From the sequence record PQ301181: 64,000 nucleotides of DNA. One strand, 5' to 3'. Source of the DNA: Escherichia phage EP02SG. Shown here one piece after another: positions 8,445 to 38,397 of the stretch. Made by a program: the position numbers and the translations under genes. How positions within the stretch are numbered: the stretch's first letter is position 1; each line of letters begins with the position of its first letter. The notes beneath the pieces were generated by a model. It was not told the DNA's origin. It saw only the letters and a list, made by a program, of their open reading frames with translations, and did no database searches.

Positions 8445-8456
8445 ATTTTTCTCTCA

Positions 8457-8657
8457 TCACAAGTTACGTTTAAAAATTTCTGCTACTTCAAGAAGTTCTT
8501 CTTTAGTAGCTGTATCGGTTTGTATTTTATATCGAATTTCTTTAAAGCGTTCTTTAAAGGACTCTGCTGACTCGATATCAAAAAATCTTTGGATAAGCCG
8601 GAATTCCCGGAGCACTGCTTTATCAAAAAGTTCCAAGTCCACGTTATATGTTCTCAT
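8457..8657 (-). CDS. hypothetical protein (rIIA.1 position)
   Basis: 66-aa track ORF immediately upstream of rIIA. Confidence 0.5.
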   Translation of the reverse strand: MRTYNVDLELFDKAVLREFRLIQRFFDIESAESFKERFKEIRYKIQTDTATKEELLEVAEIFKRNL

Positions 8658-8682
8658 AATATTCTCTTCAGTAGATTCCTAG

Positions 8683-8733
8683 GGCACTATTACTAAAGAC
8701 CATATAATCTATCATCTTATGTGTAATAGTGCC
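8683..8733. repeat. 11-bp perfect inverted repeat with 29-bp spacer upstream of rIIA.1
   Basis: GGCACTATTAC (8683-8693) and GTAATAGTGCC (8723-8733). Confidence 0.5.
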
Positions 8734-8749
8734 TCAGGCGATTCAGGAT

Positions 8750-9850
8750 TTACGCTGTGAAGATTTTATCCCACATCGCAACAACCGCATCTCGGTTATA
8801 CTTCTTCCATACTGCTTCAGCACGTTTAACTCGAGCTTCGTATGTGTCAGTGAATTCTAATACCGCTTTTGTGTAAAGCGCAACTACTTCTTTCTTAGGA
8901 GTAGAGGAATCAATTTCTACACGCACAGTATCCGGGTCATATTCGAATGTCGCGTGCGGATAATCCTTAAAAACTAACTGAATCACAGGGACACCTTTAG
9001 AGATGGCTTCAATAGAACTATTCTCTACCGTACCCGTGTCAGGACACGTATTGATAAGTGCTTTAGCTGTTTTAAGACGTTCCATGATTTCACTGTGTGG
9101 AGCATCAATAATAACAGGATACTTAGCCGGTGGTGCCCATTTACTAGGACAGTATCCTACACCATTTTCGCCTAGTGCTTTAATCGCTTCAAGAGCAACA
9201 TCAGTACGACGCATTTTAGTGTCATAACGTTGTGCACTAATAATCAGATCAGTCGCCGGAAGAACTTCAGGTTTCTCATTCAAACAAATAACCGGATAAT
9301 CTTCGGCTTCAAACAACGGATTTGCTCGCCAATAATCGTAATCAATTTTGTCAGTCAGACCTGAAGTCATATAACAATATTTGCGTTCAAATTCACGGAA
9401 GGCTTTAGTAGGAGCATAACTCTTACCACCATTCTTATGAATTTGAATAGTCTGGTCCCAAATTTGAACAATGCCACGAGATACCGGTTCAAATGGTGTT
9501 GCCATAAAATTCTTATGAACTTTAGAGAGACCTGCGTCTTTAATTGCCTGAACGGTTAGTTTAGTCGGTTCCATAGTAACAACAAAATCGTATTCATGGA
9601 TGCCGGCTAGTTCAACAATCTTACGAGCCATAGTATAACTCATACCTAGACTGAATTTAGTCAGATGACCAACAGGATGGTGTGTAACTTTCCAGTCACC
9701 AAACGTGTCATTATCAAAGCCGATATAATCAATATCAGCACCGATGGACACAAGATATTTCAACACATTTAAATGTACTGCTTCAAGGCCACCTTGTACG
9801 CGGTCAGGATTAAATGGGACTGCACGAGATGGGATAAACATAACTTTCAT
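8750..9850 (-). CDS. GT-B fold glycosyltransferase, putative DNA (hmC) glycosyl/arabinosyl-transferase
   Basis: 366-aa track ORF; C-terminal GTVENSSIEAISKGVPVIQL resembles the GT4/GT-B E-x7-E donor-binding motif; occupies the slot where T4 has gene 60 and mobA. Confidence 0.6.
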   Translation of the reverse strand: MKVMFIPSRAVPFNPDRVQGGLEAVHLNVLKYLVSIGADIDYIGFDNDTFGDWKVTHHPVGHLTKFSLGMSYTMARKIVELAGIHEYDFVVTMEPTKLTVQAIKDAGLSKVHKNFMATPFEPVSRGIVQIWDQTIQIHKNGGKSYAPTKAFREFERKYCYMTSGLTDKIDYDYWRANPLFEAEDYPVICLNEKPEVLPATDLIISAQRYDTKMRRTDVALEAIKALGENGVGYCPSKWAPPAKYPVIIDAPHSEIMERLKTAKALINTCPDTGTVENSSIEAISKGVPVIQLVFKDYPHATFEYDPDTVRVEIDSSTPKKEVVALYTKAVLEFTDTYEARVKRAEAVWKKYNRDAVVAMWDKIFTA

Positions 9851-9892
9851 AATTAAGCCTTATTAAAATTAAAATGAAGCTCCAGAAGGAGC

Positions 9893-11710
9893 TTAGGACA
9901 TCCATTCTTTACGAAGTTCTGAATCATCACCCAACAACATTTCAAAGAGTTCTTTCCAATTTTCAGGAAGTTTAACTACGTCGTACACAGGGTTCTGAAT
10001 CATTTCACGATATTCTGACTTTTCAAGGGAGCCTAATCCCTTGATGTATCGAATACTATGCTTAGGCAGTGTATCTTTAGCTTCTTCATACTCAGCTACA
10101 GTATAAAACCATTTTTGAGTTTTGCCAATTTGTGCAATAATTACAGGCGTTTTAACAAAGCGAATACGTCCTTGTTCAAACAATTCAGGCCAATTACTAA
10201 AGAAAGCAAGCAAAGCCGGATAAATACTTCCAAGACCGTCATGATCGGCATCGGTCATAATTGCAATATTACGATAGTTCGTATTCTCTGCCTTTTCACC
10301 AAGAATAAGACCTGTGATAGCACAGATATCAAAGAGCTCTTTGTTCTTCATCATATCAGCATATGACATACCCCAGCTATTCATCACCTTACCGCGTAAT
10401 GGGAATCCACCGTGTAGTTCACGGTCACGAACATCGATGAGATAACCAATTGCCGAATCACCTTCTGTTAAGAACAACGTCGTATCTGCATCTTTACCAC
10501 ATTGGTTAGCTTTAATATGCTTATGAACCTTAGCTTTAGTTGCCTTTTTAGCTGCTTTAGTTTCTGCAGCCTTTTCTGCCGCCAATTTACGAGCTAATGC
10601 TGCTTCGACAATAGGCATAATCAAGGCTTCGTTTTTAAGAAGTGCCTGAGCAATTTTCTTAGCATCTAATTGGATATGATTACGAATATCACCATACGTT
10701 GACGTTAAACGTTCTTTAGTCTGAGAATCAAAACGCATGTTGCTCATGTCTCTAATAAACATCAACATTGTGAGACATTCTTTAACACGAGCTTTAGTGA
10801 CTTCAATACCTTTATATTTCTTTTTAATACCGGGCAAAAGATGTTCGCAGATATCATCCATTACACATTCAACATGATGACCACCATTTTTAGTATGGAT
10901 GTTATTCACATAAGTTAAATGACGGAAGCCATCTGGCGATGTTGTGAATGCTATAGAGACTTTATCATTTTCTTGAATGATGTTATCTTCGCCAAATTGT
11001 TTAGCAAATCGTTTAAAATTACCGTCAACCTTTTTACCATTAAATGTGAACTTGATATCAGGATAAACGACTGCCAACGTTTGAAGTCGGTCTAAAGTAA
11101 TATCTAAATAAATTTGAGATAAATTATGCTCTTCAAATGAAGAGAAATCAGGAGTGAAGATTACTTTAGTGCCTTTACCTTTAGATTTCTTAGAAGACCA
11201 TGATTTGTTTTCCATTCCGTTTGAACAGTTAACAGTGATTTCATTTTCGCCATCTGACGTTATGCCTGTAAACAACGTAGAGAAGATATTAGTTAAACTA
11301 CTCCCGACGCCGTTCATACCACCGGTCTTACGTTCAGAGTCATCGCCAAAGTTACCGCCAGCCTTTGGAATAGTCCAGGCTGCTACAGGCCCAGGAATTT
11401 GTTCACCTGTTTGGTCGGTAACTAAACCTTGAGGAATACCACGTCCGTTATCTTCCACCGAAACTTGATTATTTTTAATTTGAACATCAATTTTATTTGC
11501 AAACTTAAATGATGTACGAATAGCTTCATCAACCGAGTTGTCAATAATCTCATCGATTAATTTAACCAGACCAGGAACATATTCAACTTGTTGATATTTA
11601 CCAAACAAAAAACGCTCATGTGCTTCTTTGGCCGAAGAACCAATATACATACCACTACGTTTCTTAATATGTTCTACATCTGACAATACCTTAATTTCAT
11701 TTTTAATCAT
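9893..11710 (-). CDS. 39: DNA topoisomerase II large subunit gp39 (GyrB-like), unsplit 39+60 form
   Basis: 605-aa track ORF; GHKL ATPase motifs (EIIDNSVDEA, DNGRGIP, GGMNGVGSS) and Toprim-like C-terminus in one frame; GAGGAG SD. Confidence 0.9.
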   Translation of the reverse strand: MIKNEIKVLSDVEHIKKRSGMYIGSSAKEAHERFLFGKYQQVEYVPGLVKLIDEIIDNSVDEAIRTSFKFANKIDVQIKNNQVSVEDNGRGIPQGLVTDQTGEQIPGPVAAWTIPKAGGNFGDDSERKTGGMNGVGSSLTNIFSTLFTGITSDGENEITVNCSNGMENKSWSSKKSKGKGTKVIFTPDFSSFEEHNLSQIYLDITLDRLQTLAVVYPDIKFTFNGKKVDGNFKRFAKQFGEDNIIQENDKVSIAFTTSPDGFRHLTYVNNIHTKNGGHHVECVMDDICEHLLPGIKKKYKGIEVTKARVKECLTMLMFIRDMSNMRFDSQTKERLTSTYGDIRNHIQLDAKKIAQALLKNEALIMPIVEAALARKLAAEKAAETKAAKKATKAKVHKHIKANQCGKDADTTLFLTEGDSAIGYLIDVRDRELHGGFPLRGKVMNSWGMSYADMMKNKELFDICAITGLILGEKAENTNYRNIAIMTDADHDGLGSIYPALLAFFSNWPELFEQGRIRFVKTPVIIAQIGKTQKWFYTVAEYEEAKDTLPKHSIRYIKGLGSLEKSEYREMIQNPVYDVVKLPENWKELFEMLLGDDSELRKEWMS

Positions 11711-21122: not shown

Positions 21123-21644
21123 TTAGTAACCTCGGTCTTGGCGGGAGAAGTTTTCAGCATTCTTCAAGTAATACAGTTTAAAGATTTCTTCAGCGGAAAG
21201 TCCCAGACCTTGGAACATATTCAGAACAAAGTGGAGGATATCAATCATCTCGAATTTAATTTCAAGCTGGTCTTCAGGAGACAGTTCATCGATACGACGA
21301 TTTCGATATTCAGCATGTTGTGCTTTCCATGGCTTCCATACAGAGCTAGCGGCTTTTTCACCATTGCTCATACCACCAAGTGAAGTCAGCAGTTCACGGA
21401 ATTCATCATCAATATAATCTTTCTGATTACGCAGCCAATCAACAACATCGCCAGCAGTGGCTAATTCATCAGGATGTTTGTTATGTTCAGGCTTGTCATT
21501 TGCCAGACGAACCTGTAAAGATTTCTGCATATCAAGCATTACCTGCAGAGGGTCTTTATCTTCGTGAATCAGGGCATTAAAATAAGCTTCTTCTGCTTTA
21601 TCAACACCAGAAATAAGTTGTGAACATTCGTTAAAGTGCGCCAT
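21123..21644 (-). CDS. 56: dCTP pyrophosphatase gp56 (dCTPase/dUTPase)
   Basis: Track ORF 21123..21659 trimmed to MAHFNECSQ; PLQVMLDMQ, ETAGDVV, DDEFRELLTSLG, FHFVLNMF, EEIFKLYYLKN match remembered T4 gp56. Confidence 0.85.
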   Translation of the reverse strand: MAHFNECSQLISGVDKAEEAYFNALIHEDKDPLQVMLDMQKSLQVRLANDKPEHNKHPDELATAGDVVDWLRNQKDYIDDEFRELLTSLGGMSNGEKAASSVWKPWKAQHAEYRNRRIDELSPEDQLEIKFEMIDILHFVLNMFQGLGLSAEEIFKLYYLKNAENFSRQDRGY

Positions 21645-24685: not shown

Positions 24686-24934
24686 TTATTCTTTTTCGCG
24701 AATAATAATTACTTGTTGAGGCTGCTGAGCAGATTTCTTTTCGGCAACGATAGACCAAATTAAAGTTCCAATCCAACCAATCATCGTCCAGTTAAAGAGT
24801 AAAGATACAAAGAAGATTGCTGTTGTGCTTTTTGTGCCACGAATAAGTGCGATTACCCAAGGCAACATGTAAATGATGATTGAACCAATACCTGCGATTA
24901 AAACTGCTACTGAACTAGCTACGAATAATTCCAT
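24686..24934 (-). CDS. Imm-family (superinfection immunity-like) membrane protein
   Basis: 82-aa track ORF; two TM helices and motif NWTMIGWIGTLIWS resembling the Imm GW...GW...LIW signature. Confidence 0.5.
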   Translation of the reverse strand: MELFVASSVAVLIAGIGSIIIYMLPWVIALIRGTKSTTAIFFVSLLFNWTMIGWIGTLIWSIVAEKKSAQQPQQVIIIREKE

Positions 24935-24996: not shown

Positions 24997-25365
24997 TTAG
25001 TTAAATTTGTTTAAACGTTCAATACACTGGACGTAGTTATTTGCGATTTGTTTCTGGGTAGGCTCTTTACCAGTTGTTTCAACATAGCGAATGAATGCGA
25101 TTTCAGTAGCCTGTAAGCAATGTTCTTTAACGCGCTGTTCTTTTGACACAGCTACGGTATCAGAATCACGATAACGTTGAGCATGAGCATCAGCTTGAAT
25201 CATTCGATTACCTACAGTAACCGGGTCTTCCACTTCAACTTTAGGTTGGTCATACTGTTTAACATTCGGATTGTAAATCAGTTGGCCAACGTTATTAGGG
25301 ATAAAGCCATGGGCACCACATCCGGTTAATCCAAATACCATTGCTAAAGCGATTAATTTTTTCAT
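24997..25365 (-). CDS. putative lipoprotein
   Basis: 122-aa track ORF; signal peptide with lipobox LTGC. Confidence 0.5.
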   Translation of the reverse strand: MKKLIALAMVFGLTGCGAHGFIPNNVGQLIYNPNVKQYDQPKVEVEDPVTVGNRMIQADAHAQRYRDSDTVAVSKEQRVKEHCLQATEIAFIRYVETTGKEPTQKQIANNYVQCIERLNKFN

Positions 25366-27478: not shown

Positions 27479-27820
27479 TTAAAAGAATTTAAATTTTTTC
27501 TTGGTCCGTTCATTAAAAGCTTGTTGTACTTGCATTGTAACACATTTTTCAACATGTGGTGCAAGTTCTGCTTTTCTGTCCTGGTCAAGAACTGCAAAGT
27601 CCATTACGATTTTACCATCAACCCAGTCTAGTTTTGTAATATAGACTATATGATGAGAACCATCTTCAAGTGTAATCAGAATCTCTTGAATGACATTTTC
27701 CATTGCTGAACGGATAATTTTAAGAGATTCATTAAACACTCGTTCTTTGCGAATGTCTTCCCCTTCCGAAGAAGGGGATTCATCAACGATTTCTAGATTT
27801 AAATCATCGAGATTATTCAT
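27479..27820 (-). CDS. 40: gp40-like head vertex assembly protein
   Basis: Track ORF 27479..27841 trimmed to MNNLDD; position between 41 and uvsX as in T4; similarity not verified. Confidence 0.5.
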   Translation of the reverse strand: MNNLDDLNLEIVDESPSSEGEDIRKERVFNESLKIIRSAMENVIQEILITLEDGSHHIVYITKLDWVDGKIVMDFAVLDQDRKAELAPHVEKCVTMQVQQAFNERTKKKFKFF

Positions 27821-28985
27821 CGAAATCTTCCATTTCGTCAAGGTCGTTTTCTATATCTGCTGCAGACGGAGCATCAGAAGTTTTAACCGGAACTTTAGTT
27901 GTTGCTTTGCAATTAATAAGGTCGTTAACAGCGTCATCAACTTCTTTAATAGAAGAGATAGCACCTAGTTTATATTTAGTTTCAATTGCATCTCGGAAAG
28001 GTTTGTGTTTAAACAAAGGTCCCCAGAATTCTACACAATCAGTAGCTTTAGCACGCCACGATTTCTCTTCACGAATCATTTCGCCTGTTTCTTCGTCAAG
28101 GAATTCACGAGCATACCAACCGGCTTTAGGCTTAACCACAAAACCGATTTCAGTTGCCATTTCTAACAAGCCACTGAATGGGTCAATACCACCATCGAAA
28201 TTAACCGTGATTGGGAAAGTAGATTTCTCTTTAACTGTACGAGATTTTTCTGCTTTCAACGTGAAGTCATAACCGGTCAATTCTGTACCTTCTTTAACCT
28301 GACGTTTAGAGATAAAAAATACCGTGTTGGCAGAATAAAGAATACCTGTACCACCGCCCATAATCTCTTTAGGATACAATCCACCAATTTCCATTGCGGT
28401 ATGGTTAATTGCAACACACGGAATATCTTTAATAGTCAGATAAGGAGTCACAATACGGAAAAGAGATTTAAGTGCCTTAGCACGAGACATATCACCTACA
28501 ACTTTCTCGTTCAACGCATCTTCGGTTTCTTTCTTAGATGCAGTATTACCGATTGAATCGATAAAGATAATAACTTTATCACCGCGTTCAATCGCGTCAA
28601 GCTGATTAGTCATATCAACTTTAAGTTGTTCGACGGACTGAATTGGCGTATGAACTACACGGTCTAAATCAACACCCATTGAACGAAAATAAGATTCTGA
28701 AGCACCGAATTCTGAGTCATAAAACAAACAGATTGCATCTTTATATTTCTTCATATATGCTGCAACCATAGTTAGTCCAAACAACGTTTTAAAGTGTTTA
28801 GAAGGAGCAGCAAAAATAGTTAAGCCTGATTGCAACCCTGCATTCAGTGCACCACCTAATGCAATATTCAACATCGGAATACGAGTAGGGACTTCATCAC
28901 GATTATTAAACAGCTTAGACTTAGTCAAGTCTGCAGTCATTTTAGAAGTAGAAGCTTTAATCAGACGAGATTTTAAATCAGACAT
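27813..28985 (-). CDS. uvsX: UvsX recombinase (RecA-like)
   Basis: 390-aa track ORF; RecA fold with Walker A GLTIFAAPSKHFKT and acidic C-tail; matches remembered T4 UvsX. Confidence 0.9.
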   Translation of the reverse strand: MSDLKSRLIKASTSKMTADLTKSKLFNNRDEVPTRIPMLNIALGGALNAGLQSGLTIFAAPSKHFKTLFGLTMVAAYMKKYKDAICLFYDSEFGASESYFRSMGVDLDRVVHTPIQSVEQLKVDMTNQLDAIERGDKVIIFIDSIGNTASKKETEDALNEKVVGDMSRAKALKSLFRIVTPYLTIKDIPCVAINHTAMEIGGLYPKEIMGGGTGILYSANTVFFISKRQVKEGTELTGYDFTLKAEKSRTVKEKSTFPITVNFDGGIDPFSGLLEMATEIGFVVKPKAGWYAREFLDEETGEMIREEKSWRAKATDCVEFWGPLFKHKPFRDAIETKYKLGAISSIKEVDDAVNDLINCKATTKVPVKTSDAPSAADIENDLDEMEDFDE

Positions 28986-29085
28986 TGTATTTTTCCATAG
29001 GCATCATTATATTTTACTCATGTTTAAAAGATAAGACGATTATATACTAAGGGTTATACAGCATTTAAAAACTTTAAACAGGCTC

Positions 29086-29634
29086 TTAACGAGCCCATTT
29101 GATAATTTCTGTAATCAAATAATTACGTTCGCTTGCATTAAATCCTATAACTTTGTTAGCACCGTCATGATTAAGTAATTGATACGTTTGGATTTTGTTA
29201 TGAATTGCAAACTCTTCAAAATATGAAATGACTGTATTAAAACCGAATGAAGACAAAGTAATAAGGTCGTCTTCAAAACTTTCAGTCATTTCGTTACGTG
29301 TTAAAATAATTGTGAACACATCATGGTTTTGGCAAAGACGAACATAATCCTGTTCATAAACATCAAGAACCGAGTCCGCATCTTGTCGAATACGTCCATA
29401 AACCCAGTTACTAATATATCCACGGTCTAACAGATAAATCTTAGTAGGGTCTAAATAATTCAACATCGTTTCGAAACAACCAACTTCATTTCGAGACTTA
29501 ACATCGAAACGTCCATCAACTGTTCGTTTAGGGAAATCAATCTTTACATATCTTTCACTAATTTCCATTATGTCATTAATGAAAGTTGTTTTACCAGCAT
29601 TATCCGGGCCATCTACTAAAATAATTTTAGCCAT
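29086..29634 (-). CDS. P-loop kinase (nucleoside/nucleotide or sugar kinase-like)
   Basis: 182-aa track ORF; Walker A GPDNAGKTT at N-terminus; start within 2 nt of upstream ORF stop. Confidence 0.55.
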   Translation of the reverse strand: MAKIILVDGPDNAGKTTFINDIMEISERYVKIDFPKRTVDGRFDVKSRNEVGCFETMLNYLDPTKIYLLDRGYISNWVYGRIRQDADSVLDVYEQDYVRLCQNHDVFTIILTRNEMTESFEDDLITLSSFGFNTVISYFEEFAIHNKIQTYQLLNHDGANKVIGFNASERNYLITEIIKWAR

Positions 29635-29635
29635 T

Positions 29636-30535
29636 TTATTCCTCGATTACGACATCTTCATATTTAGGTATATTATACGGCGAAGAAATTAAAGCATTAA
29701 AGTAGATGAACTCGCCAAGACCTGGATGGAATACTTCTTCAGGATTTTCGAAATATTGAATCTTCGGACGTCCTTTAAGAATTTGATAGTACTCAGTTTT
29801 AGTTGGATTAAAAATTCGAATCAGCGCTTCTTCAGGATACTTATTTCTGTCGAAACTATTATTTGGATCAGTTATATAAAGCGGTTGACCTAATTGAATT
29901 GCGCATTCAACCACTTGTTCAAAACGATAGCATGGGTCACTAATTCGAAATGGATGAAAAATACCATCTAGATGAATAGGAGCCAAATCACCTACAAGAC
30001 GCTGCATGACGGAAGGACGTATAACTTTCTGTGTTACGATAATCTTATTACCATCTGCACCTGCGTTAACCAGCACTTCTTTTTGACGTTCATTCAACAC
30101 AGTAGTTTGAAGTGAACGATTAACAGACAACATGTCGGTTTTTAAGAATTCATCAATATAAAAACGTGGTTTATTAGGGTCTGCAGTGATATTGAAATTG
30201 AATTCTACGTCAAAAGCGCCATCATATCCAGTGATATCTGTGATTAGAAAATCACAATCATAATAAGCAATTAATGAATCAACCACAAATTCATTTTCAG
30301 ACCAGAAATATTTACGAGTGTTATACGCGTTATCTTTATACCATAATGGAACAAACTTAAATTCCGGAAAAAGACGTTCGCATTCTTTAATATCAGATGC
30401 ATTACGTGGATATGTAATCACATCACCTGGATTAGCACGGTGCAAATGAAGTTGGAAGTTGCCATCCTTAAGGATAGCATACTGACCAGTTTCATAAGAC
30501 CGCATACTCAAGATAGGTACACGGAAAATAGCCAT
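29636..30535 (-). CDS. hypothetical protein (299 aa) at the T4 beta-gt position
   Basis: Track ORF; start overlaps gp42 stop at 30535; no recognisable resemblance to T4 beta-glucosyltransferase. Confidence 0.5.
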   Translation of the reverse strand: MAIFRVPILSMRSYETGQYAILKDGNFQLHLHRANPGDVITYPRNASDIKECERLFPEFKFVPLWYKDNAYNTRKYFWSENEFVVDSLIAYYDCDFLITDITGYDGAFDVEFNFNITADPNKPRFYIDEFLKTDMLSVNRSLQTTVLNERQKEVLVNAGADGNKIIVTQKVIRPSVMQRLVGDLAPIHLDGIFHPFRISDPCYRFEQVVECAIQLGQPLYITDPNNSFDRNKYPEEALIRIFNPTKTEYYQILKGRPKIQYFENPEEVFHPGLGEFIYFNALISSPYNIPKYEDVVIEE

Positions 30536-31251
30536 TAGTCAAGGAATCCTTTAACATAATCAAAATCACGTTCAAACACATGGGCACTTACCATGGTATG
30601 AGTATAATCACCAACTTCTACACCACATTCATTAGCGATATAATGAAGTAATTTTCCTTGGAGATAAAAATCCAACTGCATAACAACAGCACAGTTCTGA
30701 GAACGCATATGACAGTGGGTATAAAGCTTACCATCACGAATATAATAAGTCACTGAGTCAGTACATGGATATTCAAGTGTTTCGTCCGAATCAAGCAAAG
30801 CCTGATCTGAACTTTCTAGAATTTGGAACACAACTCTTCGGGAGTTAGGCTTCTCTTTAAGTTCTTTTAGAAGAGCTGGTAATTGGGCCGCAATGCGAGG
30901 ACCATAGAAAGTGTTGAAGTTCGCCGGCAAAACATCTGATTTTGGTTTAGAAATAAATTTAGCGACATTAGGATATGCCTTAAACGCTTCTTCTGCGTTG
31001 GTACCACCAGAAATCATAAACTTCCAGAAGTCTTCGGCATATTCATAAGAGATGCGGTTAATACGTGGGTCGGTCATTTTGAATGATGATGGAGTGTCAA
31101 CAACTACTGTCATAGACCCAATTTCATTACAACGTCCAATACGAGAATCAGTTACGAATTCCGGGTTTTCTAAAATTTCACGATTGACTGCTTTAAATGC
31201 GGTTTGAAAATCTGCGGCTTTAATATATTTCATTGTGTTATGTTTTCCCAT
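30535..31251 (-). CDS. 42: dCMP hydroxymethylase gp42 (thymidylate synthase family)
   Basis: 238-aa track ORF; TS-fold block PCTDSVTYYIRDGKLYTHCHMRSQNCAVVMQLDFYLQGKLLHYIANECGVEVGDYTHTMVSAHVF; length and position match gene 42 rather than td. Confidence 0.8.
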   Translation of the reverse strand: MGKHNTMKYIKAADFQTAFKAVNREILENPEFVTDSRIGRCNEIGSMTVVVDTPSSFKMTDPRINRISYEYAEDFWKFMISGGTNAEEAFKAYPNVAKFISKPKSDVLPANFNTFYGPRIAAQLPALLKELKEKPNSRRVVFQILESSDQALLDSDETLEYPCTDSVTYYIRDGKLYTHCHMRSQNCAVVMQLDFYLQGKLLHYIANECGVEVGDYTHTMVSAHVFERDFDYVKGFLD

Positions 31252-31269
31252 GTTTACCTCAATACAGTT

Positions 31270-31295
31270 ATTATATACTCAATTCATAAAGCTTA
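31270..31295 (-). promoter_or_regulatory. possible MotA-type middle promoter upstream of gene 42
   Basis: rc: TAAGCTTTA - 11 nt - TATAAT then GAGGTAAAC SD and ATG at 31251; one mismatch to MotA box. Confidence 0.35.
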
Positions 31296-31374
31296 TTTGA
31301 ATTTCTTAGCGATGTTGATATAACGTAAAGCTTCAGCATCGATATTTCCAAGAACACTATGAAGAAATGCATCA

Positions 31375-31533
31375 GCGTAGTATTCTAGTTGAACAGGTTT
31401 CTTTAATCACTTTAGCCGCTTTAGTTTCAAACAGGCCCATAAGGGCCTTTTTAAGAATTTGTTCGTTGCTGTTAATTTTAATAGTCAAAATCTCTTCGTT
31501 AAGTTGGTGGTTAAAAGTTTTTCTAGAAATCAT
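31375..31533 (-). CDS. small hypothetical protein (about 52 aa)
   Basis: Hand-translated MISRKTFNHQLNEEIL...; ATGA overlap with stop of the 386-aa ORF; coordinates approximate. Confidence 0.25.
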
Positions 31534-32690
31534 TCTGGGTACCTCAAAGCGTCATCAGAGTTAGTTATATCAATAATAGATATAGAGTTTTCTGATAACC
31601 CATTTTTAGATAACTGACGTTTATAATATCTTTCACAATATGTACACGTCGTCCCACAGATTTCATTAGCACAATCGAAATCTGGATGTTTGAACCACCT
31701 TTTTTCTAAAAAGCCGTCTAACAAAGAGGTTTCAATATTTACCGTATGTGAAAACTCAGTCTCATTTTCAAGAGTGAAAATGGTCTCTAAAGGCTTCCAC
31801 AATTCCAACAAATTACCTTCAAACTTTTCAGAAGCGTAAGCTTCAAGAACTTTTAAAATGTAGTCGGTGCTACCTGTACGTCCTGAAACTTTAAATTGAG
31901 TGATACCAATATCATTATAAAGTTTCAAATCTTGAGGACGAACAAAACGAGTTCTCAACCAGTTAAATGGATCTGTATCACGAGCTTTAATACAGTGTTG
32001 CATTGGATATCCATTTAAAGATTTGGCATCATCTACTGTAACATCGGTGCTATGGAAAATATAGCAAGAGTCACGATAGCTACAATGTGTTGTATACCCT
32101 TTACCAGCATTAGAACAGAACTCATTTACAAGAACTTCAAATATTATATTGTTCTTATTGCAAAACTCTGCTGCACGCTTCAGGAAAGAAACTGAACGGT
32201 TCTTATGAATTCCACAACAGACCTTTTTGATATTATACTGGTCATGCAAGTATTTGATTTGAGTTACAGCATCAACATGTAGAATTGTTGAAACTTCAAT
32301 CTCAATGTCTTTATTGACTTCACGAACAATTTCCATAACAACAGGGTTAGCGATAGTAATACGCCATACGCCTATTGACCAAAGATACTGAACATAATCC
32401 TGAATAGCTTTCTTCTTCCACTCAACTAGTTCTCTTTTTGAACCAGGATTTATCGTGTTGAGTGTATAGTTAAAGCAAATACCTAATTCGTTACAACGTT
32501 TAACGTAATCTTCTAACATCTTTTTGTCAACGTCAGGAAGCCTAAAATCAGGTCTGGCTGCTACAAAAGCCATTTCTCTTGTAGAGCCGTATACTTCGTT
32601 TATCAAGCTATTAGGATAAGTTTTATTGAGCTCTACGATTTTATCAAGAAGAGCTAAATCAAAATTCGTTCCGATTTTAAAAGTATTCAT
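31530..32690 (-). CDS. Cys-rich putative metalloenzyme (386 aa), possibly TIM-barrel/Fe-S (peptidase U32-like?)
   Basis: Track ORF; Cys clusters NEFCSNAGKGYTTHCSYRDSCYIF and CANEICGTTCTYCERYY; family assignment uncertain. Confidence 0.5.
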   Translation of the reverse strand: MNTFKIGTNFDLALLDKIVELNKTYPNSLINEVYGSTREMAFVAARPDFRLPDVDKKMLEDYVKRCNELGICFNYTLNTINPGSKRELVEWKKKAIQDYVQYLWSIGVWRITIANPVVMEIVREVNKDIEIEVSTILHVDAVTQIKYLHDQYNIKKVCCGIHKNRSVSFLKRAAEFCNKNNIIFEVLVNEFCSNAGKGYTTHCSYRDSCYIFHSTDVTVDDAKSLNGYPMQHCIKARDTDPFNWLRTRFVRPQDLKLYNDIGITQFKVSGRTGSTDYILKVLEAYASEKFEGNLLELWKPLETIFTLENETEFSHTVNIETSLLDGFLEKRWFKHPDFDCANEICGTTCTYCERYYKRQLSKNGLSENSISIIDITNSDDALRYPE

Positions 32691-32753
32691 TTTTTTTTTT
32701 TTTGCATCCCACGTTAATTGATGCGATGGTTTTTGCAGGTCTTACTTAAATTA

Positions 32754-33140
32754 TTATAGATTCGGTTTATATGATTTAAATGTTTCGAATTCGCCTTTAT
32801 TCATAAGAGCTTTGAATTCGTCAGGACGCATAGCTTTGTCGTCGATAATCCAATCATATACTGGTTTATGTGTTAGCAAATTATGGTACTTCAATCCAAT
32901 GTTTGCCAAGTTCTGAATCAGACTTGGGAGAATGTCAATTGCTATACGACCAGGACCGACTGACTTCATACCGCGAGCAGTGTAAAGCGTTATGGTATGC
33001 CCTGCATCATACAGGGCATTAATGGCAGACACCATTTCGACGTCTGGTTTGAAGTTCACGTAATCACGATTGTTATTCCACTCTGTTATACAATCATCGA
33101 CATCAAAACAAAGATTAAGCATGTTTTCTACACGGTGCAT
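32754..33140 (-). CDS. HAD-superfamily sugar-phosphate phosphatase (KdsC-like)
   Basis: Track ORF 32754..33155 trimmed to MHRVEN (TAATG overlap with upstream stop); HAD motif I FDVDDCIT, motif II TLYTARG, motif IV WIIDDK. Confidence 0.55.
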   Translation of the reverse strand: MHRVENMLNLCFDVDDCITEWNNNRDYVNFKPDVEMVSAINALYDAGHTITLYTARGMKSVGPGRIAIDILPSLIQNLANIGLKYHNLLTHKPVYDWIIDDKAMRPDEFKALMNKGEFETFKSYKPNL

Positions 33141-34828
33141 TAGATTCGTTCCCATTGATGAGTGATATCGCCACCGATTGGACGATAAGAAACACCAGTT
33201 TCTTTATCAGTTAGTACCCATTTACCAGGATTTTTTGTAATCAGAGTAGCCGTTACAGGTTCTGCTACATCATAACTAATAGTGCCGTCCTGAAGTACAC
33301 GGCCCATGTTACGTAATTGCTTAGTCAGAAGTTCCATACCTTTATAATATGCGGCTACCGCTTTAAGTGGATTATTCTTGAAATAACCACCTAATGCAAT
33401 CCAGATAATTGCCACTGCCAAATGATGATACTCGTTAAACGAACTCATCTTTCCATATTTGTAAACTAACGGATTGATGTTAATAGTCACATTACAAGTT
33501 GTTTCATCAATAGTAAACTGTCCCCAAGTCGGATTAGCGTTGAATTCATCATAACCTGAAACAGCGTAAAGCACTTTAGCTTCATCATACAATTTTGGCC
33601 CATAAATCTTGGTTTCACCAAAATATCCACGAGGGTCGATAAACTTGACTTCACCATTATCAGTAATCATAGTATTACTGAAGTTCGGGTCACCATGAAT
33701 AACAGAGTACTGTCCCTGAGAACGGTTATGATAACGAATAAGGTGTTCTAAAGCTTGTTTCAACATTGGCTTCAGACGCCCAATCTTAGTGTAGTTCACA
33801 TGTGTGATTTTACCAAATGAATCAATCAATGGTTGAATACTTTCACAACGATCAATAACTTTAGTATAGAATTCTTTAGTGAAATCACGACGAACAGTTT
33901 CAGGACTTACAAAATAAGTGTCTGTGCTGAATTTCAGTGCATCTAAAATTGCATCAATAATTTGTGGACGAGCAAGACTTGATTTGGATTTAATATATTC
34001 AAATGCTGGCTTACCTTTAATACGTTCCATAATAAAGTGGCCGCCAGGATGATAACTTACAATCCGTGGAACTGAATCTGATTTAACTTTCTTATACCAA
34101 TTGACTTCATCTTTTTGAAGTGCAACGCCCTGTTCTGTTAAAGCAATCTTTGTTACCGTTTCTTCGCCAATTTCAACTGCATTAAAACTACGATTAAGTT
34201 CACGAACTTCATGAGCTTTTTCAAGTTTAGGCATATCACCAAGATCGATGATATTCATAAGCTCTGATTTATTGAATGCGCTGCCGTAAAGGAATTCTAC
34301 GAAATCACGTCCTTTGCAGTATTCATGAATTTCCTCATCAGTAGAACCCATATAGAATTCCCAGTCTTTGAACTGATAAATTCCTACAACATTACCACCT
34401 GTTGAACCTACATTAGTGATATTTTCACCGTCGAAATTATATCGACATTCGTCACCCTTAACATAGATTGCGTTAACATTCCAAGACCACGAACCAAAAT
34501 CAGGAATAATATCACACCAGTTAACAATTACATTATGGCCGTCTAAATCTTTGTGCAATTTAGCAAGAGCATAAGCAGAACCATACGCTTCATCAACTGT
34601 ACGAATAGTCACATTGAACCCTTCTTGCTCACAATAAGCTCGAACAGTTTCAGCAAATTTTGAATGAACTACTACAATAATTTCATCTGCGCCAAGGTCA
34701 GAATAAATTGTATACAAATTGCTCAGAATAGTGTCTTGTTTATAGTTAACAAGCACCTTAGGAATATGATGCGTTATTGGATACAAACGAGTTGCCAGTC
34801 CAGCACCAAGAATAACAGCTTTTTTCAT
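33140..34828 (-). CDS. bifunctional sugar-1-phosphate nucleotidyltransferase / sugar kinase
   Basis: 562-aa track ORF; N-term MKKAVILGAGLATRLYPIT..PKVLV (RmlA/GalU-type NTP-transferase); C-term HGDPNFSNTMI...FIDPRG (APH/choline-kinase Brenner motif); TGAGGA SD. Confidence 0.65.
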   Translation of the reverse strand: MKKAVILGAGLATRLYPITHHIPKVLVNYKQDTILSNLYTIYSDLGADEIIVVVHSKFAETVRAYCEQEGFNVTIRTVDEAYGSAYALAKLHKDLDGHNVIVNWCDIIPDFGSWSWNVNAIYVKGDECRYNFDGENITNVGSTGGNVVGIYQFKDWEFYMGSTDEEIHEYCKGRDFVEFLYGSAFNKSELMNIIDLGDMPKLEKAHEVRELNRSFNAVEIGEETVTKIALTEQGVALQKDEVNWYKKVKSDSVPRIVSYHPGGHFIMERIKGKPAFEYIKSKSSLARPQIIDAILDALKFSTDTYFVSPETVRRDFTKEFYTKVIDRCESIQPLIDSFGKITHVNYTKIGRLKPMLKQALEHLIRYHNRSQGQYSVIHGDPNFSNTMITDNGEVKFIDPRGYFGETKIYGPKLYDEAKVLYAVSGYDEFNANPTWGQFTIDETTCNVTININPLVYKYGKMSSFNEYHHLAVAIIWIALGGYFKNNPLKAVAAYYKGMELLTKQLRNMGRVLQDGTISYDVAEPVTATLITKNPGKWVLTDKETGVSYRPIGGDITHQWERI

Positions 34829-34869
34829 GTTGTGGTCCTCATTGGTAAGTAGGAGTATTGTACACTATT

Positions 34870-35013
34870 CTAGTTAAAGCATTCATACTTTGCTTGTAGT
34901 CCAATCATAATCCATCCGATTATAAGAGTCGGAATCATTACTGGAGCCGTTAAGCTCCAGTAGATAGTCATGACAAGCATCAATAGTAAAAGTCCTATTG
35001 TTATTGCTTTCAT
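34870..35013 (-). CDS. small membrane protein (about 47 aa)
   Basis: Hand-translated MKAITIGLLLLMLVMTIYWSLTAPVMIPTLIIGWIMIGLQAKYECFN; ATGA overlap with stop of the SIS-domain gene. Confidence 0.3.
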   Translation of the reverse strand: MKAITIGLLLLMLVMTIYWSLTAPVMIPTLIIGWIMIGLQAKYECFN

Positions 35014-35645
35014 TGTTCGCCTCGTAACATGGCACCTAGTGCACCGCCGGGGTGGAACTTAAGGAAGTCATTAGAGGTAAATCCACGTTCAGACGAAAGG
35101 TTGATAGCAAACGTATCGATAAGCGCTAACAACAATGTAGTGGACATGGTCGGAGCCAGAGAATTCTCATCAACCTCTACTGCGATGCCTGTACAGAACG
35201 TATAATCAAAAAGAGCTTCGTATTCTTGTGGAATGTCCGGGTTACAATGCAACAGAATCTGTTTGACGTTCGGACGAATCATTTTAAGATGCTTAGCCAC
35301 GCCTATCATTTCTTCAGTTTTACCAGAACGACTAATATGAATCAACACATCATTAGGCGCAATGAATCCTGCATCACCGTGAGAATAATGCCCAGTGTTC
35401 AAGTACATACTCGGGATACCGAGTGAAGCAAATGTCTCAGAAGCTTTAGTTGCAATATTAGCATTCTTACCAACACCTGTAATAATTACTCGGCTTTCAT
35501 AATTACTAAGTCCTGGGCGTCGAAGAGTTTCTAGAATAGCATTATAACGAGCAGGGTTTTGACTAATTACTTTGGCCATAGCGGCCAAAGAAGAAGCTTG
35601 TTTTATGATTGCGTCAATAGCGATAGTAATAGGAGTAGTTTTCAT
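35010..35645 (-). CDS. SIS-domain sugar-phosphate isomerase, arabinose-5-phosphate isomerase (KdsD/GutQ/KpsF)-like
   Basis: 211-aa track ORF; ITGVGKNANIATKASETFASLGIPS...HGDAGFI...VLIHISRSGKTEE...LAPTMSTTLLLALIDTF...FHPGGALG match SIS/API signature; no CBS domains. Confidence 0.7.
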   Translation of the reverse strand: MKTTPITIAIDAIIKQASSLAAMAKVISQNPARYNAILETLRRPGLSNYESRVIITGVGKNANIATKASETFASLGIPSMYLNTGHYSHGDAGFIAPNDVLIHISRSGKTEEMIGVAKHLKMIRPNVKQILLHCNPDIPQEYEALFDYTFCTGIAVEVDENSLAPTMSTTLLLALIDTFAINLSSERGFTSNDFLKFHPGGALGAMLRGEQ

Positions 35646-35685: not shown

Positions 35686-38397
35686 TCAAAAATCGAACAT
35701 ATCGAACAGAGATGCTTTCTTCTCATAATCGAGTTTCGCTGCTGATGTGAATCCTTCAAGTGGTTTAATAAATGTCTTCTCAAGGAGAACAGTGTAGTCC
35801 ATCCAGTGAAGTACATCGTCTTTAATTAAATCTGTGATTTCAGTACCAGAAGGCCATGCGATACATTTATCACCGAATGGGTTTCCTTCACGTAAAGGCA
35901 GAACATATACTTTTTCACCTTCTACAACTTGCGGTGCATCGATATTACCTTTGATAGCACGGTTATACGTCAGAATTCCACGAATATGGAACGGGCATTT
36001 GGGACCAGGGAATCCACCTACATCATATTTAGCAATGTTATTCGCAGAAGATACCGACGCGATGCTAATATAATTCAATTGACGGAATTCTTTTTCAAAC
36101 TCTTTAAAATATTCTTGTAATGATTCTTCACCTTCTTGAAGCATACGACGAATACATTCTTTAAGAGCTTTCTGTACTGCTTTAGGAGTCGAAGATTTCT
36201 GAGTCTCTAGACCCATGATTTTGAGTTTAGGCTCAGCGTAACGAGTACCTTCCATATCCCACACGTTTAATGCATAACGTTTCTTACCAGTCCAGAATCC
36301 ACCAATACCTTTAGAACCGAGTGGAGGCCCAGCGATAGCTTCTCGGTCCATGAACATTAAGTGTTGTTTATTGTTCATGTATTCACACATTTCACGGAAA
36401 CCTCTATCAATAGCTGGTTCCATACGTTCACGTGCAAACTTATCTAAGAAGTCTACCCAATGGTTGGTATCACGGAATTTAGATTCACCAACCTTATCGA
36501 TAATTTTATCAGCAGATACGTAAATAGAGTCTGTATCACCATAAAGAACGAAAGCTTCACCTTCTGTGCCACAAACTTCATTCAGATATTCATTAACTTT
36601 ACGTTCAATCCACTGTAAAGCCATTTGACCAAATGTTGTGATTGCAGTAGCATTACGCAAATCATAATAACGGAACCAAACGTTGCCAAGTGCACCATAA
36701 AGTGAGTTGATAAGCAATTTACGGTTAATTTGGGCAGTCATACCTGCAACTTCAGTACGTTGAGCTCTAAACAACATTTCATTAAGAGATTTAGCAGACA
36801 ACTTTTTAATCTTTTCTTTAATCTCATCACTGAAGTCGAAACGATAATCAACATCTAATGGTTCATCAACAGAAAGATTAGGATTATGCAATGCCTCTTT
36901 AATTATTTCACCATTACGTTGAGCTGCAAGCATGTAACCTTTATGTTCTTTACGTTGATTAAAGACCTTAGTGATTTCAGTTGGAACTACACCATCACGG
37001 TCTTTATAATACATCATGCCGTTAGGAGAACAACTGTACACATCAGAAGGACGTTCAGCAACAGCGTTAATATAATCATGCAATGGAGCTACTTTAAACG
37101 TTCCTGCTATTGTTTCTGGGCTAATATTCACTTGGCGAATAATACTTGGATACAGGGATGTAAGGTCGAAACTCATTACATATTTGTATCGATTTGGAAT
37201 AGGTTCCTTAACAAAAGCGCCTGGATAAGGTTGAACCGGATGAGAACGACCTTGTGGAATCACCTTGTTCTGCTCTTTAAGGCTATTAAAAATAATAGCA
37301 TCCCAAGTTTTAATTGGACTGAACACAGATTGAATCTGAATTTTAGCATAATAACCCATGTCCAAGCTCAAGTTAATGAACTGGCGTTTAGCATCAATTT
37401 GCAATACACGATACACGTCGATAATGTTATAAGAAATATATCGTTGGTGATTGCTTTCACGAAGCTTAGAAATAGGGCCGTCATATTTCAGTTTACCAAC
37501 GTTCAATTCAAATTCTGAAATGTAATCCAAAGAATATGACGGTTGATTGGTAAAAGAGAATTTTTTGTAAAGGTCAATATAATCAAGAACAGAGATACCG
37601 AACAATGTAATGATTTCACGAGAACCATACATGTTTTCGATAACTTTAACACGAGTTTTACGATGTGGTGATAAACGTTTCGCAGTAGATTCGCCAAAAA
37701 TATTCTTGATTCGGTTATACACATATGGAATATCAAATGACTCAACGTTCCATCCAGTCAAAATGACAGGAGTTTTCTGTTGCCAGAAGTTGAGATATTC
37801 CATCAACAATTCTTTTTCGTTATCGAACGGCATATAAATGATTTTATCGATAATTTCGGATGGAACTTCATCACCGCCTTGTTCTTGAAGCTTAGCCGCA
37901 ATTTCGATAGACCATTCTTCTACATTACCATATGGAGAATTCAATAGATCAAATACGTAGAACCTGTCATCAATTGAGTCATAATGGGTGATAGCATCAA
38001 TCGGATGTTTTGCTTGGGACGGCTCAGGGAACCCGTCCGGAGATGTTACTTCGATGTCGAAGTTAGCCACACGAATTTTTGTATGGTCGTATTTGATTTC
38101 ATAGTTATAAGTGTCAGACAAATACGCCAATTTGAAATCGTCCATGCCAAGTGCTTCAAGACCGATATCTTCCATGCGTTTAATCCATTGGGAGGCATCA
38201 CGCATATTAGCGAACAACTTACGAGTACACGGCTTACCGTAGATATCGAAATATTTCGTAGCCTGACTTTCTGGACAATGAGCAAACAGTGATGGTTTAT
38301 ATTCTACTTCACGAGTACGTTCACGGCCGTTAGAATCGATGTAACGTTCAAAAATTGAATCACCAATCTGTTCAACCGTTAAGTAAAATTCTTTCAT
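35686..38397 (-). CDS. 43: DNA polymerase gp43 (family B, with 3'-5' exonuclease)
   Basis: 903-aa track ORF; exo motif FDIEV, pol motifs KLLINSLYGALG and YGDTDS; N-terminus MKEFYLTVEQIGDSIFERYIDSNGRER as I remember RB69 gp43. Confidence 0.95.
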   Translation of the reverse strand: MKEFYLTVEQIGDSIFERYIDSNGRERTREVEYKPSLFAHCPESQATKYFDIYGKPCTRKLFANMRDASQWIKRMEDIGLEALGMDDFKLAYLSDTYNYEIKYDHTKIRVANFDIEVTSPDGFPEPSQAKHPIDAITHYDSIDDRFYVFDLLNSPYGNVEEWSIEIAAKLQEQGGDEVPSEIIDKIIYMPFDNEKELLMEYLNFWQQKTPVILTGWNVESFDIPYVYNRIKNIFGESTAKRLSPHRKTRVKVIENMYGSREIITLFGISVLDYIDLYKKFSFTNQPSYSLDYISEFELNVGKLKYDGPISKLRESNHQRYISYNIIDVYRVLQIDAKRQFINLSLDMGYYAKIQIQSVFSPIKTWDAIIFNSLKEQNKVIPQGRSHPVQPYPGAFVKEPIPNRYKYVMSFDLTSLYPSIIRQVNISPETIAGTFKVAPLHDYINAVAERPSDVYSCSPNGMMYYKDRDGVVPTEITKVFNQRKEHKGYMLAAQRNGEIIKEALHNPNLSVDEPLDVDYRFDFSDEIKEKIKKLSAKSLNEMLFRAQRTEVAGMTAQINRKLLINSLYGALGNVWFRYYDLRNATAITTFGQMALQWIERKVNEYLNEVCGTEGEAFVLYGDTDSIYVSADKIIDKVGESKFRDTNHWVDFLDKFARERMEPAIDRGFREMCEYMNNKQHLMFMDREAIAGPPLGSKGIGGFWTGKKRYALNVWDMEGTRYAEPKLKIMGLETQKSSTPKAVQKALKECIRRMLQEGEESLQEYFKEFEKEFRQLNYISIASVSSANNIAKYDVGGFPGPKCPFHIRGILTYNRAIKGNIDAPQVVEGEKVYVLPLREGNPFGDKCIAWPSGTEITDLIKDDVLHWMDYTVLLEKTFIKPLEGFTSAAKLDYEKKASLFDMFDF

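Follow-up and report, generated by a model that had tools for sequence, protein, structure and literature searches.

The 64,000-nucleotide stretch of Escherichia phage EP02SG considered here (sequence record PQ301181; the whole stretch is called the window below) carries a block of nine open reading frames (ORFs) at positions 29086-35645, all transcribed from the minus strand and lying between uvsX (27813-28985) and the DNA polymerase gene (35686-38397). Its products correspond to a pathway for arabinosylation of cytosine in phage DNA, accompanied by a Peptidase_U32-family protein for which we propose a role below. A six-frame ORF listing reproduced all nine frames with the coordinates, lengths, flanking genes and overlapping stops and starts that a first-pass annotation had described (Table 1), and where that annotation had guessed a P-loop kinase, a HAD phosphatase, an NTP_transferase/kinase fusion and an SIS domain, family searches gave matches in each case. 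Stop and start codons overlap by 1 or 4 bases at 30535, 31530-31533, 33140 and 35010-35013, and the GC content is flat over the block and its flanks (0.32-0.43), so that there is no compositional island. In T4 the interval between uvsX and gene 43 holds segA, beta-gt, 42, imm and imm.1. The suggestion that the T4 beta-gt/imm block has been replaced holds for beta-gt, for which there is no homologue anywhere in the 64-kb window, but not for imm and imm.1, which are present but relocated to the gene 61/sp/dmd region (24689-24934 and 25000-25365, minus strand), as in RB69.

Table 1. Genes and predicted sites of the EP02SG block, with two related genes elsewhere in the window
Feature	Position	Strand	Length	Remarks
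Terminator-like hairpin	29076-29100	-		10-bp stem and T-rich tail; overlaps the stop of the kinase gene, the last in the block; consensus match only
Thymidylate-kinase-like P-loop nucleotide kinase (RB69 gp45)	29086-29634	-	182 aa
GT-B glycosyltransferase, proposed base-proximal arabinosyltransferase (RB69 gp46:47)	29636-30535	-	299 aa
MotA-like site	29672-29695	-		just upstream of the kinase gene
Thymidylate-synthase-family protein, predicted flavin/O2-dependent 5-hydroxy-dCMP synthase (RB69 gp48)	30535-31251	-	238 aa
MotA-box-type middle-promoter-like site	31270-31292	-		GCTTTA, 11 nt, TATAAT; just upstream of the synthase gene
Small ORF, RB69 ORF049c family	31372-31533	-	53 aa	start overlaps the U32 stop as ATGA
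Peptidase_U32-family TIM-barrel protein (RB69 gp50)	31530-32690	-	386 aa	ten invariant Cys
HAD-type Mg-dependent phosphatase AfhF (RB69 gp51)	32754-33140	-	128 aa	an alternative upstream start at 33155 gives 133 aa
AfhE bifunctional nucleotidyltransferase/kinase (RB69 gp52:53)	33140-34828	-	562 aa
MotA-like site	34857-34880	-		just upstream of the AfhE gene
Hydrophobic ORF, RB69 ORF054c family	34870-35013	-	47 aa	between the isomerase and AfhE genes
SIS-domain arabinose-5-phosphate isomerase, KdsD/GutQ-like (RB69 gp55)	35010-35645	-	211 aa
Second GT-B (GT4-like) arabinosyltransferase, RB69 ORF003c/gp3 homologue	8750-9850	-		outside the block, between rIIA and gene 39
gp56 dCTPase homologue	21126-21644	-		99% identical to RB69p028

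The 6.7-kb block is 97-98% identical at the DNA level in 151 phage records, nearly all of them Escherichia or Shigella Mosigvirus, and is therefore not a chance pattern; the best DNA matches, at 98.3%, are ZQ3 and HY126. The full gene set and order (SIS isomerase, AfhE, HAD phosphatase, thymidylate synthase (TS) homologue, glycosyltransferase (GT) and Tmk-like kinase) lies between gene 43 and uvsX as in the Mosigvirus cluster, and the block matches gene for gene the arabinosyl-5-hydroxycytosine clusters of RB69, HY126 (Afh), Bas46/47 (Aat) and Acinetobacter phage DLP3, except that ORF049 is frameshifted in the window, unlike in RB69, and that DLP3 and DLP1 have no U32 gene in their clusters but additional GTs, for a third arabinose. 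Very probably, then, we are dealing with the cytosine-arabinosylation cluster of an RB69-like (Mosigvirus) phage.

Publications from 2018 to 2026 have already described this cluster (Thomas 2018; Mahler 2025; He 2026; Lee 2026), which is partly characterised structurally and biochemically. Thomas et al. 2018 reported arabinose in RB69 DNA and regarded the polymerase-uvsX module as the likely source of UDP-arabinose and ORF003c as the transferase (PMC6024577), and the modified base of RB69 DNA has since been identified by mass spectrometry (MS) and nuclear magnetic resonance (NMR) as mono- and di-arabinosylated 5-hydroxycytosine (5hoC), the link at C5 being an ether (Lee et al. 2026, NAR, PMC13326640). 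Arabinosyl-5-hydroxycytosine has been published in virion DNA of RB69, NP, HY126 and Bas46/47 (PMC13326640; PMC13390438), and the 2018 assignment of hydroxymethylcytosine (hmC) is termed erroneous (PMC13390438). The first-pass annotation thus recovered a real hypermodification cluster from the raw sequence alone: its core idea of a pentose-nucleotide pathway glycosylating phage DNA, with isomerase, HAD phosphatase and kinase/nucleotidyltransferase, was right, as was its mention of arabinose for RB69 (PMC6024577; PMC13326640), but its product, arabinosyl-hmC, differs from the published base. The pathway itself adds nothing beyond the literature. Some points weigh against a simple transfer of that pathway to EP02SG. 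That this phage behaves like RB69 and HY126 is deduced from 97-99% identity, the chemistry being that of the relatives. The steps assigned to AfhE and AfhF, and the Aat transferases, are taken from He et al. 2026 and Mahler et al. 2025 as relayed by Lee et al. Table 1 of Lee et al. keeps an older order, in which the sugar phosphate is dephosphorylated to arabinose and then phosphorylated, whereas their text gives a bisphosphate route, and single DLP3 GTs were inactive on 5hoC-DNA (PMC13326640).

The TS homologue matches Pfam Thymidylat_synt (2e-15) and the PDB entries 9iqc, 9ir2 and 9iqu (E 8e-161), with 5 substitutions in 238 residues relative to 9iqc/9ir2; it is 99% identical to RB69 gp48 and just 25% identical to T4 gp42 over 218 residues. 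Alignment with E. coli ThyA and T4 gp42 (ThyA numbering) shows that Cys146 is kept and that the protein carries L143E, D169N and N177D, the context of position 169 being RSQN in the window, RSND in T4 gp42 and RSCD in ThyA, with QLD at 177 and LEYPC at 143-146. Glu143 and Asp177 go with dCMP specificity. RB69 gp48 makes 5-hydroxy-dCMP from dCMP with oxygen derived from 18O2 and binds flavin mononucleotide (FMN), and Asn at position 169 marks this activity, in a signature with Asp177 and an acidic residue at 143 (PMC13326640). The first-pass annotation had taken this ORF for gp42 dCMP hydroxymethylase; with Asn169 in place of Asp and 25% identity to gp42, it should not be filed as such, and its sequence identifies it as a flavin/O2-dependent 5-hydroxy-dCMP synthase.

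In the base branch of the pathway the gp56 homologue, listed as a dCTPase in Table 1 of Lee et al. (PMC13326640), would give dCMP and clear dCTP from the pool as part of the same base replacement; the TS homologue would hydroxylate dCMP at C5 using O2 and flavin, and kinases would convert the 5-hydroxy-dCMP to the triphosphate of 5-hydroxy-dC, which the polymerase would insert instead of dC. The arrangement resembles hmC glucosylation in T4, where the same slot between uvsX and gene 43 is occupied and a TS-family enzyme acting on dCMP is likewise followed by GT-B enzymes. The two systems differ in that the C5 group is here a hydroxyl from O2/flavin and in T4 a hydroxymethyl from methylene-tetrahydrofolate, and in that the sugar donor is here made by the phage, whereas the alpha- and beta-glucosyltransferases of T4 use host UDP-glucose.

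The 299-aa protein encoded next to the TS homologue was left as an unknown by the first-pass annotation, and it has neither a Pfam match nor a PDB match by sequence. Its AlphaFold2 (AF2) model (pLDDT 93) has a GT-B fold, however, and Foldseek matches it in the PDB to MshA (3c4q), sucrose-phosphate synthase (6kih), UDP-GlcNAc 2-epimerases and 9ir0, an entry labelled 'phage HY126 glycosyltransferase with UDP', which makes it a glycosyltransferase. The second transferase gene of the window, outside the block, encodes a protein 99% identical to RB69 ORF003c (PDB 9iqz/9ir0, E 5e-251). With gp46:47 proposed as the first arabinosyltransferase of RB69 and gp3 as the second (PMC13326640), the 299-aa enzyme would add the first arabinose to the 5-hydroxyl and its partner the second. 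The order of the two transferases is inferred, and given the inactivity of single DLP3 GTs noted above, the first may act on the nucleotide or on DNA.

The P-loop protein matches PHROG 761 (thymidylate kinase, 6e-45), has a weak match to a dTMP-kinase P-loop and is 98% identical to RB69p045. Every related cluster examined has such a Tmk-like kinase, and its gene adjoins the GT gene in JS98, DLP1, Thanatos-2 and three metagenomic contigs (L024, L027 and L028). The order TS homologue, GT, Tmk-like kinase found at 29086-31251 of the window recurs in L027 (6277-8555) and L028 (6303-8594), where the synthase is about 54% and the kinase about 30% identical to that of EP02SG. Because of this conserved order and the inactive DLP3 enzymes, the first arabinose may be attached at the mononucleotide stage, with the Tmk-like kinase handling the glycosylated dNMP.

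The 386-aa protein is the enzyme of the block for which the published pathway has no defined step. The first-pass annotation called it a Cys-rich enzyme and left it unplaced; it is indeed Cys-rich, but its family is Peptidase_U32 (Pfam PF01136, 6e-11, 42.4 bits against a gathering cut-off of 22.4). Lee et al. table its RB69 counterpart gp50 just as 'sugar or heterocycle reductase', without discussing it, and mention the RlhA and TrhP pathways merely as not using TS-type synthase homologues (PMC13326640). Within the searchable literature, outside which He 2026 and Mahler 2025 fall, we found nothing relevant that joins U32 or chorismate mutase with phage cytosine modification, and a transposon-mutagenesis preprint on LC53 and Bas46 holds no essentiality data for these genes. 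We put forward tentatively, as an idea that is attractive but somewhat short of probable, that U32 may be an Fe-S enzyme which hydroxylates C5 of dCMP, or of some other deoxynucleotide of cytosine or a pyrimidine, in a prephenate-dependent reaction that needs no O2. The phage would then have, next to the TS homologue that works with flavin and O2, an anaerobic second way of making 5-hydroxycytosine; other phage lineages would carry their own prephenate supply beside U32 (chorismate mutase or DAHP synthase), and in some uncultured phages it would replace the TS homologue as the partner of the base-proximal glycosyltransferase. The proposal is based on the family of the protein, two independent links to prephenate, its extreme conservation, the company of deoxynucleotide genes and its substitution for the TS homologue beside the same transferase, which are taken in turn.

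Members of the family hydroxylate in the absence of O2: UbiU/UbiV carry out O2-independent ubiquinone hydroxylation. RlhA is an Fe-S enzyme that forms 5-hydroxycytidine in 23S rRNA with prephenate as the hydroxyl donor, and TrhP depends on prephenate where its counterpart TrhO depends on O2 (PMC13602947). TrhO and TrhP, which form 5-hydroxyuridine in tRNA, are a precedent for an O2-dependent and a U32 enzyme serving one C5 hydroxylation, as proposed here. The AF2 model of the phage protein (pLDDT 89) is a TIM barrel with the U32 peptidase Mk0906 (5d88) as its top PDB fold match; by sequence it has no PDB match, and among the top 50 Foldseek matches of the model there is no U32 hydroxylase, 5d88 being the sole entry of the family. 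A profile of 23 phage sequences was aligned by hhalign with three E. coli paralogues. RlhA was the best of these (84% probability, E 7e-6, 203 columns), with TrhP and UbiU weak (E 0.0046 and 0.012, against single-sequence templates), and RlhA, which makes ho5C2501 of 23S rRNA, is thus the nearest paralogue by profile. Residues C203 and C209 align with the first two of a four-Cys set (C169/C176/C192-3/C196-7 in RlhA and TrhP, C169/C176/C193/C232 in UbiU) whose residues act as 4Fe-4S ligands in UbiU/UbiV. C192 and C233 are invariant in the 23 homologues and could complete the cluster. There are eight further invariant Cys besides C203 and C209, including a C-terminal CX4CX3CX2C set that the phage protein has in addition to what it shares with RlhA, TrhP and UbiU, and a deoxynucleotide or DNA substrate would also be new relative to those enzymes.

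We note that the C-terminal set, an invariant C-X4-C-X3-C-X2-C at residues 340-352 (…DCANEICGTTCTYCERYY), lies outside the barrel core in a part of the model of lower confidence, and that this segment holds a CX3CX2C whose last Cys is preceded by an aromatic residue, resembling the cluster motif of radical-SAM enzymes.

Between genera, U32 is the most conserved protein of the cluster, at 80-87% identity, compared with 69-83% for the synthase, 42-73% for AfhE, 38-72% for the kinase, 46-69% for the GT, 68-90% for UvsX and 60-84% for the polymerase. Phages of Enterobacterales and Shewanella account for the 221 phage records in which it occurs, and the tblastn matches are all at least 80% identical and T4-like; all six loci that were inspected carry it inside the 5hoC cluster. 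Two clusters that are complete in other respects, those of Acinetobacter phage DLP1 and the E. coli Dhakavirus JS98, do not have the gene. AfhE is found in 373 records, 57 of them from Acinetobacter phages; for U32, neither the ten most frequent organism names nor the 60 listed records include an Acinetobacter phage. A strict rule by which U32 tracks facultative anaerobes was considered and rejected, as JS98-type Dhakaviruses infect E. coli without it.

The first link to prephenate comes from the ORF that follows U32. In Entb_45, Thanatos-2, Klebsiella kv_tblp2 and Serratia CHI14, the ORF overlapping the U32 stop codon by 4 bases is a type II chorismate mutase (CM_2, 33-45 bits against a Pfam gathering cut-off of 27), and in Thanatos-2 the U32 and chorismate mutase genes have been shifted together to the opposite end of the cluster. 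Chorismate mutase homologues occur in 51 phage records and, in the records inspected, lie beside the U32 and TS genes. In the window the slot of the chorismate mutase gene in these other genera is filled by ORF049, which matches PHROG 8601 over residues 1-50 of a 79-position profile and is truncated by one extra A in an A-run at about 31398-31400 (minus strand); its product is 53 aa long here, as it is in ZQ3 and JS09, against 79 aa in RB69 and 40 aa in HY126. This frame variation in near-identical phages could reflect decay, phase variation or sequencing error. ORF049 was also considered as a diverged chorismate mutase, but the window form, a frameshift-repaired form and the RB69 form were all without Pfam, NCBIfam or hhalign signal, and the idea was rejected.

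The second link, together with the association with deoxynucleotide genes and the replacement of the TS homologue, is seen in metagenomic contigs. More than 200 metagenomic homologues of U32 were found (48-58% identity) in phage-like contexts; eight contigs were inspected for U32, and 15-17 kb of each contig was examined. On several megaphage-like contigs the gene lies in a series comprising Tmk, UDG/PolIII-alpha, in some cases dCMP deaminase, U32 and SSB, and on one contig it stands beside NT5C, dNK and a nucleoside deoxyribosyltransferase; in the examined megaphage-like stretches around U32 no sugar genes were called. On three of the eight contigs (L023, L024 and L025), U32 comes directly after a gene related to that of the 299-aa transferase (26-30% identity, E 1e-12 to 2e-17), abutting it or overlapping it by a few bases, and no TS homologue was found in the 15 kb examined of each. 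L023, whose U32 is 54% identical, has SIS-like, AfhE-like and epimerase genes as well, and right after U32 it carries a gene for DAHP synthase (237 bits with the DAHP synthase model and 63 with that for KDO8P synthase). On three other contigs (L026-L028), the transferase homologue is downstream of a D169N TS homologue, directly so in L027 and L028, where a Tmk-like kinase gene follows it, and no U32 was found in the stretches examined. The transferase family is thus found with a TS homologue, with U32 or with both, which is the pattern expected if TS and U32 are alternative suppliers of the 5-hydroxyl acceptor.

Two further features of these contigs bear on the same chemistry. L024 (4777-13179) contains, in this order, Gly_transf_sug, a Tmk-like kinase, the 299-aa-transferase homologue, U32, directly followed by a TET-associated glycosyltransferase, and dUTPase/DCD, with UDP-galactopyranose mutase further on, and from its gene content it looks like a locus for a hexofuranosyl modification of DNA pyrimidines that has yet to be described and that relies on a U32 enzyme. 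Upstream of the TS homologue in L026 (1-123), and directly so in L027 (5715-6275) and L028 (5739-6293), lies a Flavodoxin_2-type NAD(P)H oxidoreductase gene, the product of which is a candidate flavin reductase partner of 5-hydroxy-dCMP synthase; the block of the window has no gene of this type. We also note that in the megaphage-like contigs L008, L011 and L022, one of which is 466 kb long, U32 lies between PolIII-alpha (with dCMP deaminase intervening in two) and SSB, and is followed, in the same place each time, by an unannotated 247-254-aa protein without a Pfam match (9175-9939, 9080-9826 and 8089-8832, respectively).

Several observations count against U32 as a hydroxylase. The third and fourth Cys of the family set fail to align, the Dhakaviruses of E. 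coli do without the protein, the Mosigviruses have no chorismate mutase and would rely on host PheA/TyrA, and the metagenomic contexts cover 15-17 kb of each contig. An alternative, which we regard as unlikely, is that U32 acts on the sugar or reduces a heterocycle. The gene does lie between the sugar genes and the base genes and in L023 it adjoins the SIS, AfhE-like and epimerase genes, and the entry of Lee et al. (PMC13326640) is joined by a BASEL annotation as 'putative enzyme involved in UDP-arabinose biosynthesis'. Yet Acinetobacter phages and JS98 have the complete sugar pathway and no U32, the characterised PF01136 members known to us (RlhA, TrhP and UbiU/UbiV) are hydroxylases and not sugar enzymes, its coupling to chorismate mutase or DAHP synthase is to suppliers of prephenate, and the megaphage-like contigs place it among dCMP deaminase, Tmk, dNK and NT5C.

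Less likely again is a role in hydroxylating host or phage RNA (tRNA U34 or 23S C2501) so as to tune translation, the location in the cluster being incidental. T4-like phages do manipulate translation, and RlhA is the best E. coli paralogue in the profile comparison. However, the gene sits within the 5hoC cluster in each of the six phage loci and immediately after the transferase gene on three of eight contigs, and the phage protein does not reach the length of RlhA (653 aa) or TrhP (453 aa) and lacks their additional C-terminal regions. If the hydroxylase proposal is true, it would matter in several ways: these phages have facultative anaerobes as hosts while the 5-hydroxy-dCMP synthase known so far requires O2, and U32 would explain full DNA modification, and hence protection from restriction and CRISPR, when O2 is scarce. 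The U32 hydroxylase family would be extended from RNA and quinones to DNA precursors, and U32 would be a marker for 5-hydroxypyrimidine DNA modifications in uncultured phages without a TS-type enzyme.

The sugar branch of the cluster involves three further proteins. The SIS protein matches SIS (2e-10), KpsF/GutQ (2e-32), KdsD (1e-30) and PHROG 5670 (2e-116). AfhE, 95-99% identical to RB69p052/053, matches NTP_transferase in its N-terminal part (1e-9) and, weakly, APH in its C-terminal part (0.004); the nucleotidyltransferase domain matches MurU, LicC, RmlA and GlmU types, best of all MurU and LicC (1jyk LicC, 2e-5). The HAD protein has a DVDDC (DxD) motif and matches the capsule-biosynthesis phosphatase model TIGR01689 (4e-13) and PDB entries 9iqw (8e-88) and 1xpj (5e-10). 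In HY126, AfhE is an arabinose-5-phosphate kinase as well as a UDP-arabinose pyrophosphorylase and AfhF strips the 5-phosphate from arabinofuranose-1,5-bisphosphate, according to what PMC13326640 reports of He et al. 2026, and a role for the SIS isomerase is proposed in PMC6024577 and PMC13326640. A plausible route is that the isomerase would convert ribulose-5-phosphate to arabinose-5-phosphate, a step we infer; that the APH/choline-kinase-like anomeric kinase at the C-terminus of AfhE would make arabinofuranose-1,5-bisphosphate; that AfhF would take off its 5-phosphate; and that the N-terminal domain of AfhE would uridylylate the product to UDP-arabinofuranose.

The route drawn in the first-pass annotation was instead one in which gp42-type hmC is the acceptor and the HAD enzyme yields free arabinose, which is phosphorylated at C1 and activated by the nucleotidyltransferase to form arabinosyl-hmC. 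The TS-family fold and the slot syntenic with T4 gene 42 fit this scheme, as do the 'ara-hmC' of Thomas 2018 (PMC6024577) and the step wording of Table 1 of Lee et al. (PMC13326640), and we nevertheless consider it highly improbable. The residue at position 169 and the low identity separate the synthase from gp42, the RB69 enzyme makes 5hodCMP with oxygen from O2 and the MS and NMR data place the ether at C5 (PMC13326640), the 2018 assignment is described as erroneous (PMC13390438), and the order of steps is reversed, with the kinase first and AfhF afterwards, in the account given by Lee et al. of HY126 AfhE/AfhF (PMC13326640). The other suggestion, a KDO-like octulosonate pathway with a KdsC-like phosphatase and a CMP-KDO-type transferase decorating DNA or the cell surface, can be set aside almost completely: a HAD phosphatase and a nucleotidyltransferase are present, but the KdsD/GutQ-like isomerase is the sole part shared, Pfam and NCBIfam profile scans of the nine block proteins gave no match to KdsA (KDO8P synthase), KdsB or a KdsC-type family, the phosphatase matches (TIGR01689, 1xpj and 9iqw) include none of KdsC type, the nucleotidyltransferase is of MurU/LicC/RmlA/GlmU type, and the sugar of RB69 DNA is arabinose.

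The UDP-arabinofuranose route has a close parallel in bacterial metabolism. In the ADP-heptose pathway of lipopolysaccharide biosynthesis, GmhA is an SIS isomerase, HldE a bifunctional kinase/nucleotidyltransferase and GmhB a HAD phosphatase, and the same four steps are seen here: SIS isomerase, anomeric kinase giving a bisphosphate, HAD phosphatase and kinase-fused nucleotidyltransferase. The fold match in the AlphaFold Database for the DLP3 phosphatase homologue is a GmhB-type heptose-1,7-bisphosphate 7-phosphatase (PMC13326640). The phage route differs in using a pentose and UDP rather than a heptose and ADP, and since its kinase is APH/choline-kinase-like and not PfkB, and its transferase MurU/LicC-like and not cytidylyltransferase-like as in HldE, the two pathways are analogous and not orthologous. 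Both AfhE domains come from the same two families as the pairs AmgK-MurU (anomeric MurNAc kinase and MurNAc-1-phosphate uridylyltransferase) and LicA-LicC (choline kinase and CTP:phosphocholine cytidylyltransferase), although here the activities are fused in one 562-aa chain, and there is an extra phosphatase step because the substrate of the AfhE kinase already bears a 5-phosphate. In the clusters of Klebsiella kv_tblp2, Proteus Pm5461, JS98 and Thanatos-2, AfhE (42-54% identical) and the HAD phosphatase are present and no SIS gene is detectable in the stretch examined; host KdsD/GutQ may supply arabinose-5-phosphate to these, or a different sugar may be used.

Among the regulatory sites, the MotA-like motif GCTTNA-N10-13-TANNNT is found 43 times in the window against 13.9 expected, a count reached in none of 100 shuffles, and generic sigma-70 and terminator scans gave site counts not above the shuffled expectation in the region. 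The three sites in Table 1 are putative MotA-type middle promoters for AfhE, the synthase and the kinase, and the hairpin at the kinase stop is a putative terminator. The 47-aa hydrophobic ORF matches PHROG 3610 (4.5e-27), and JS98 and CHI14 each have an annotated ORF in the corresponding place.

RB69 has UvsX and DNA polymerase in common with the window at 100% identity, and its cluster proteins are 95-99% identical to those encoded here. ORFs 46/47 and 52/53, which are split in RB69, are single ORFs in this window, in agreement with the literature (PMC6024577; PMC13326640), and the split of gp52/53 has been attributed to a sequencing error (PMC6024577). We note that RB69 is outside the 40 best DNA-match records for the block and that the C-terminal part of AfhE (33140-34174) is just 95% identical to that of RB69, in contrast to the flanking proteins. 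The combination suggests either mosaicism or errors in the old RB69 record.

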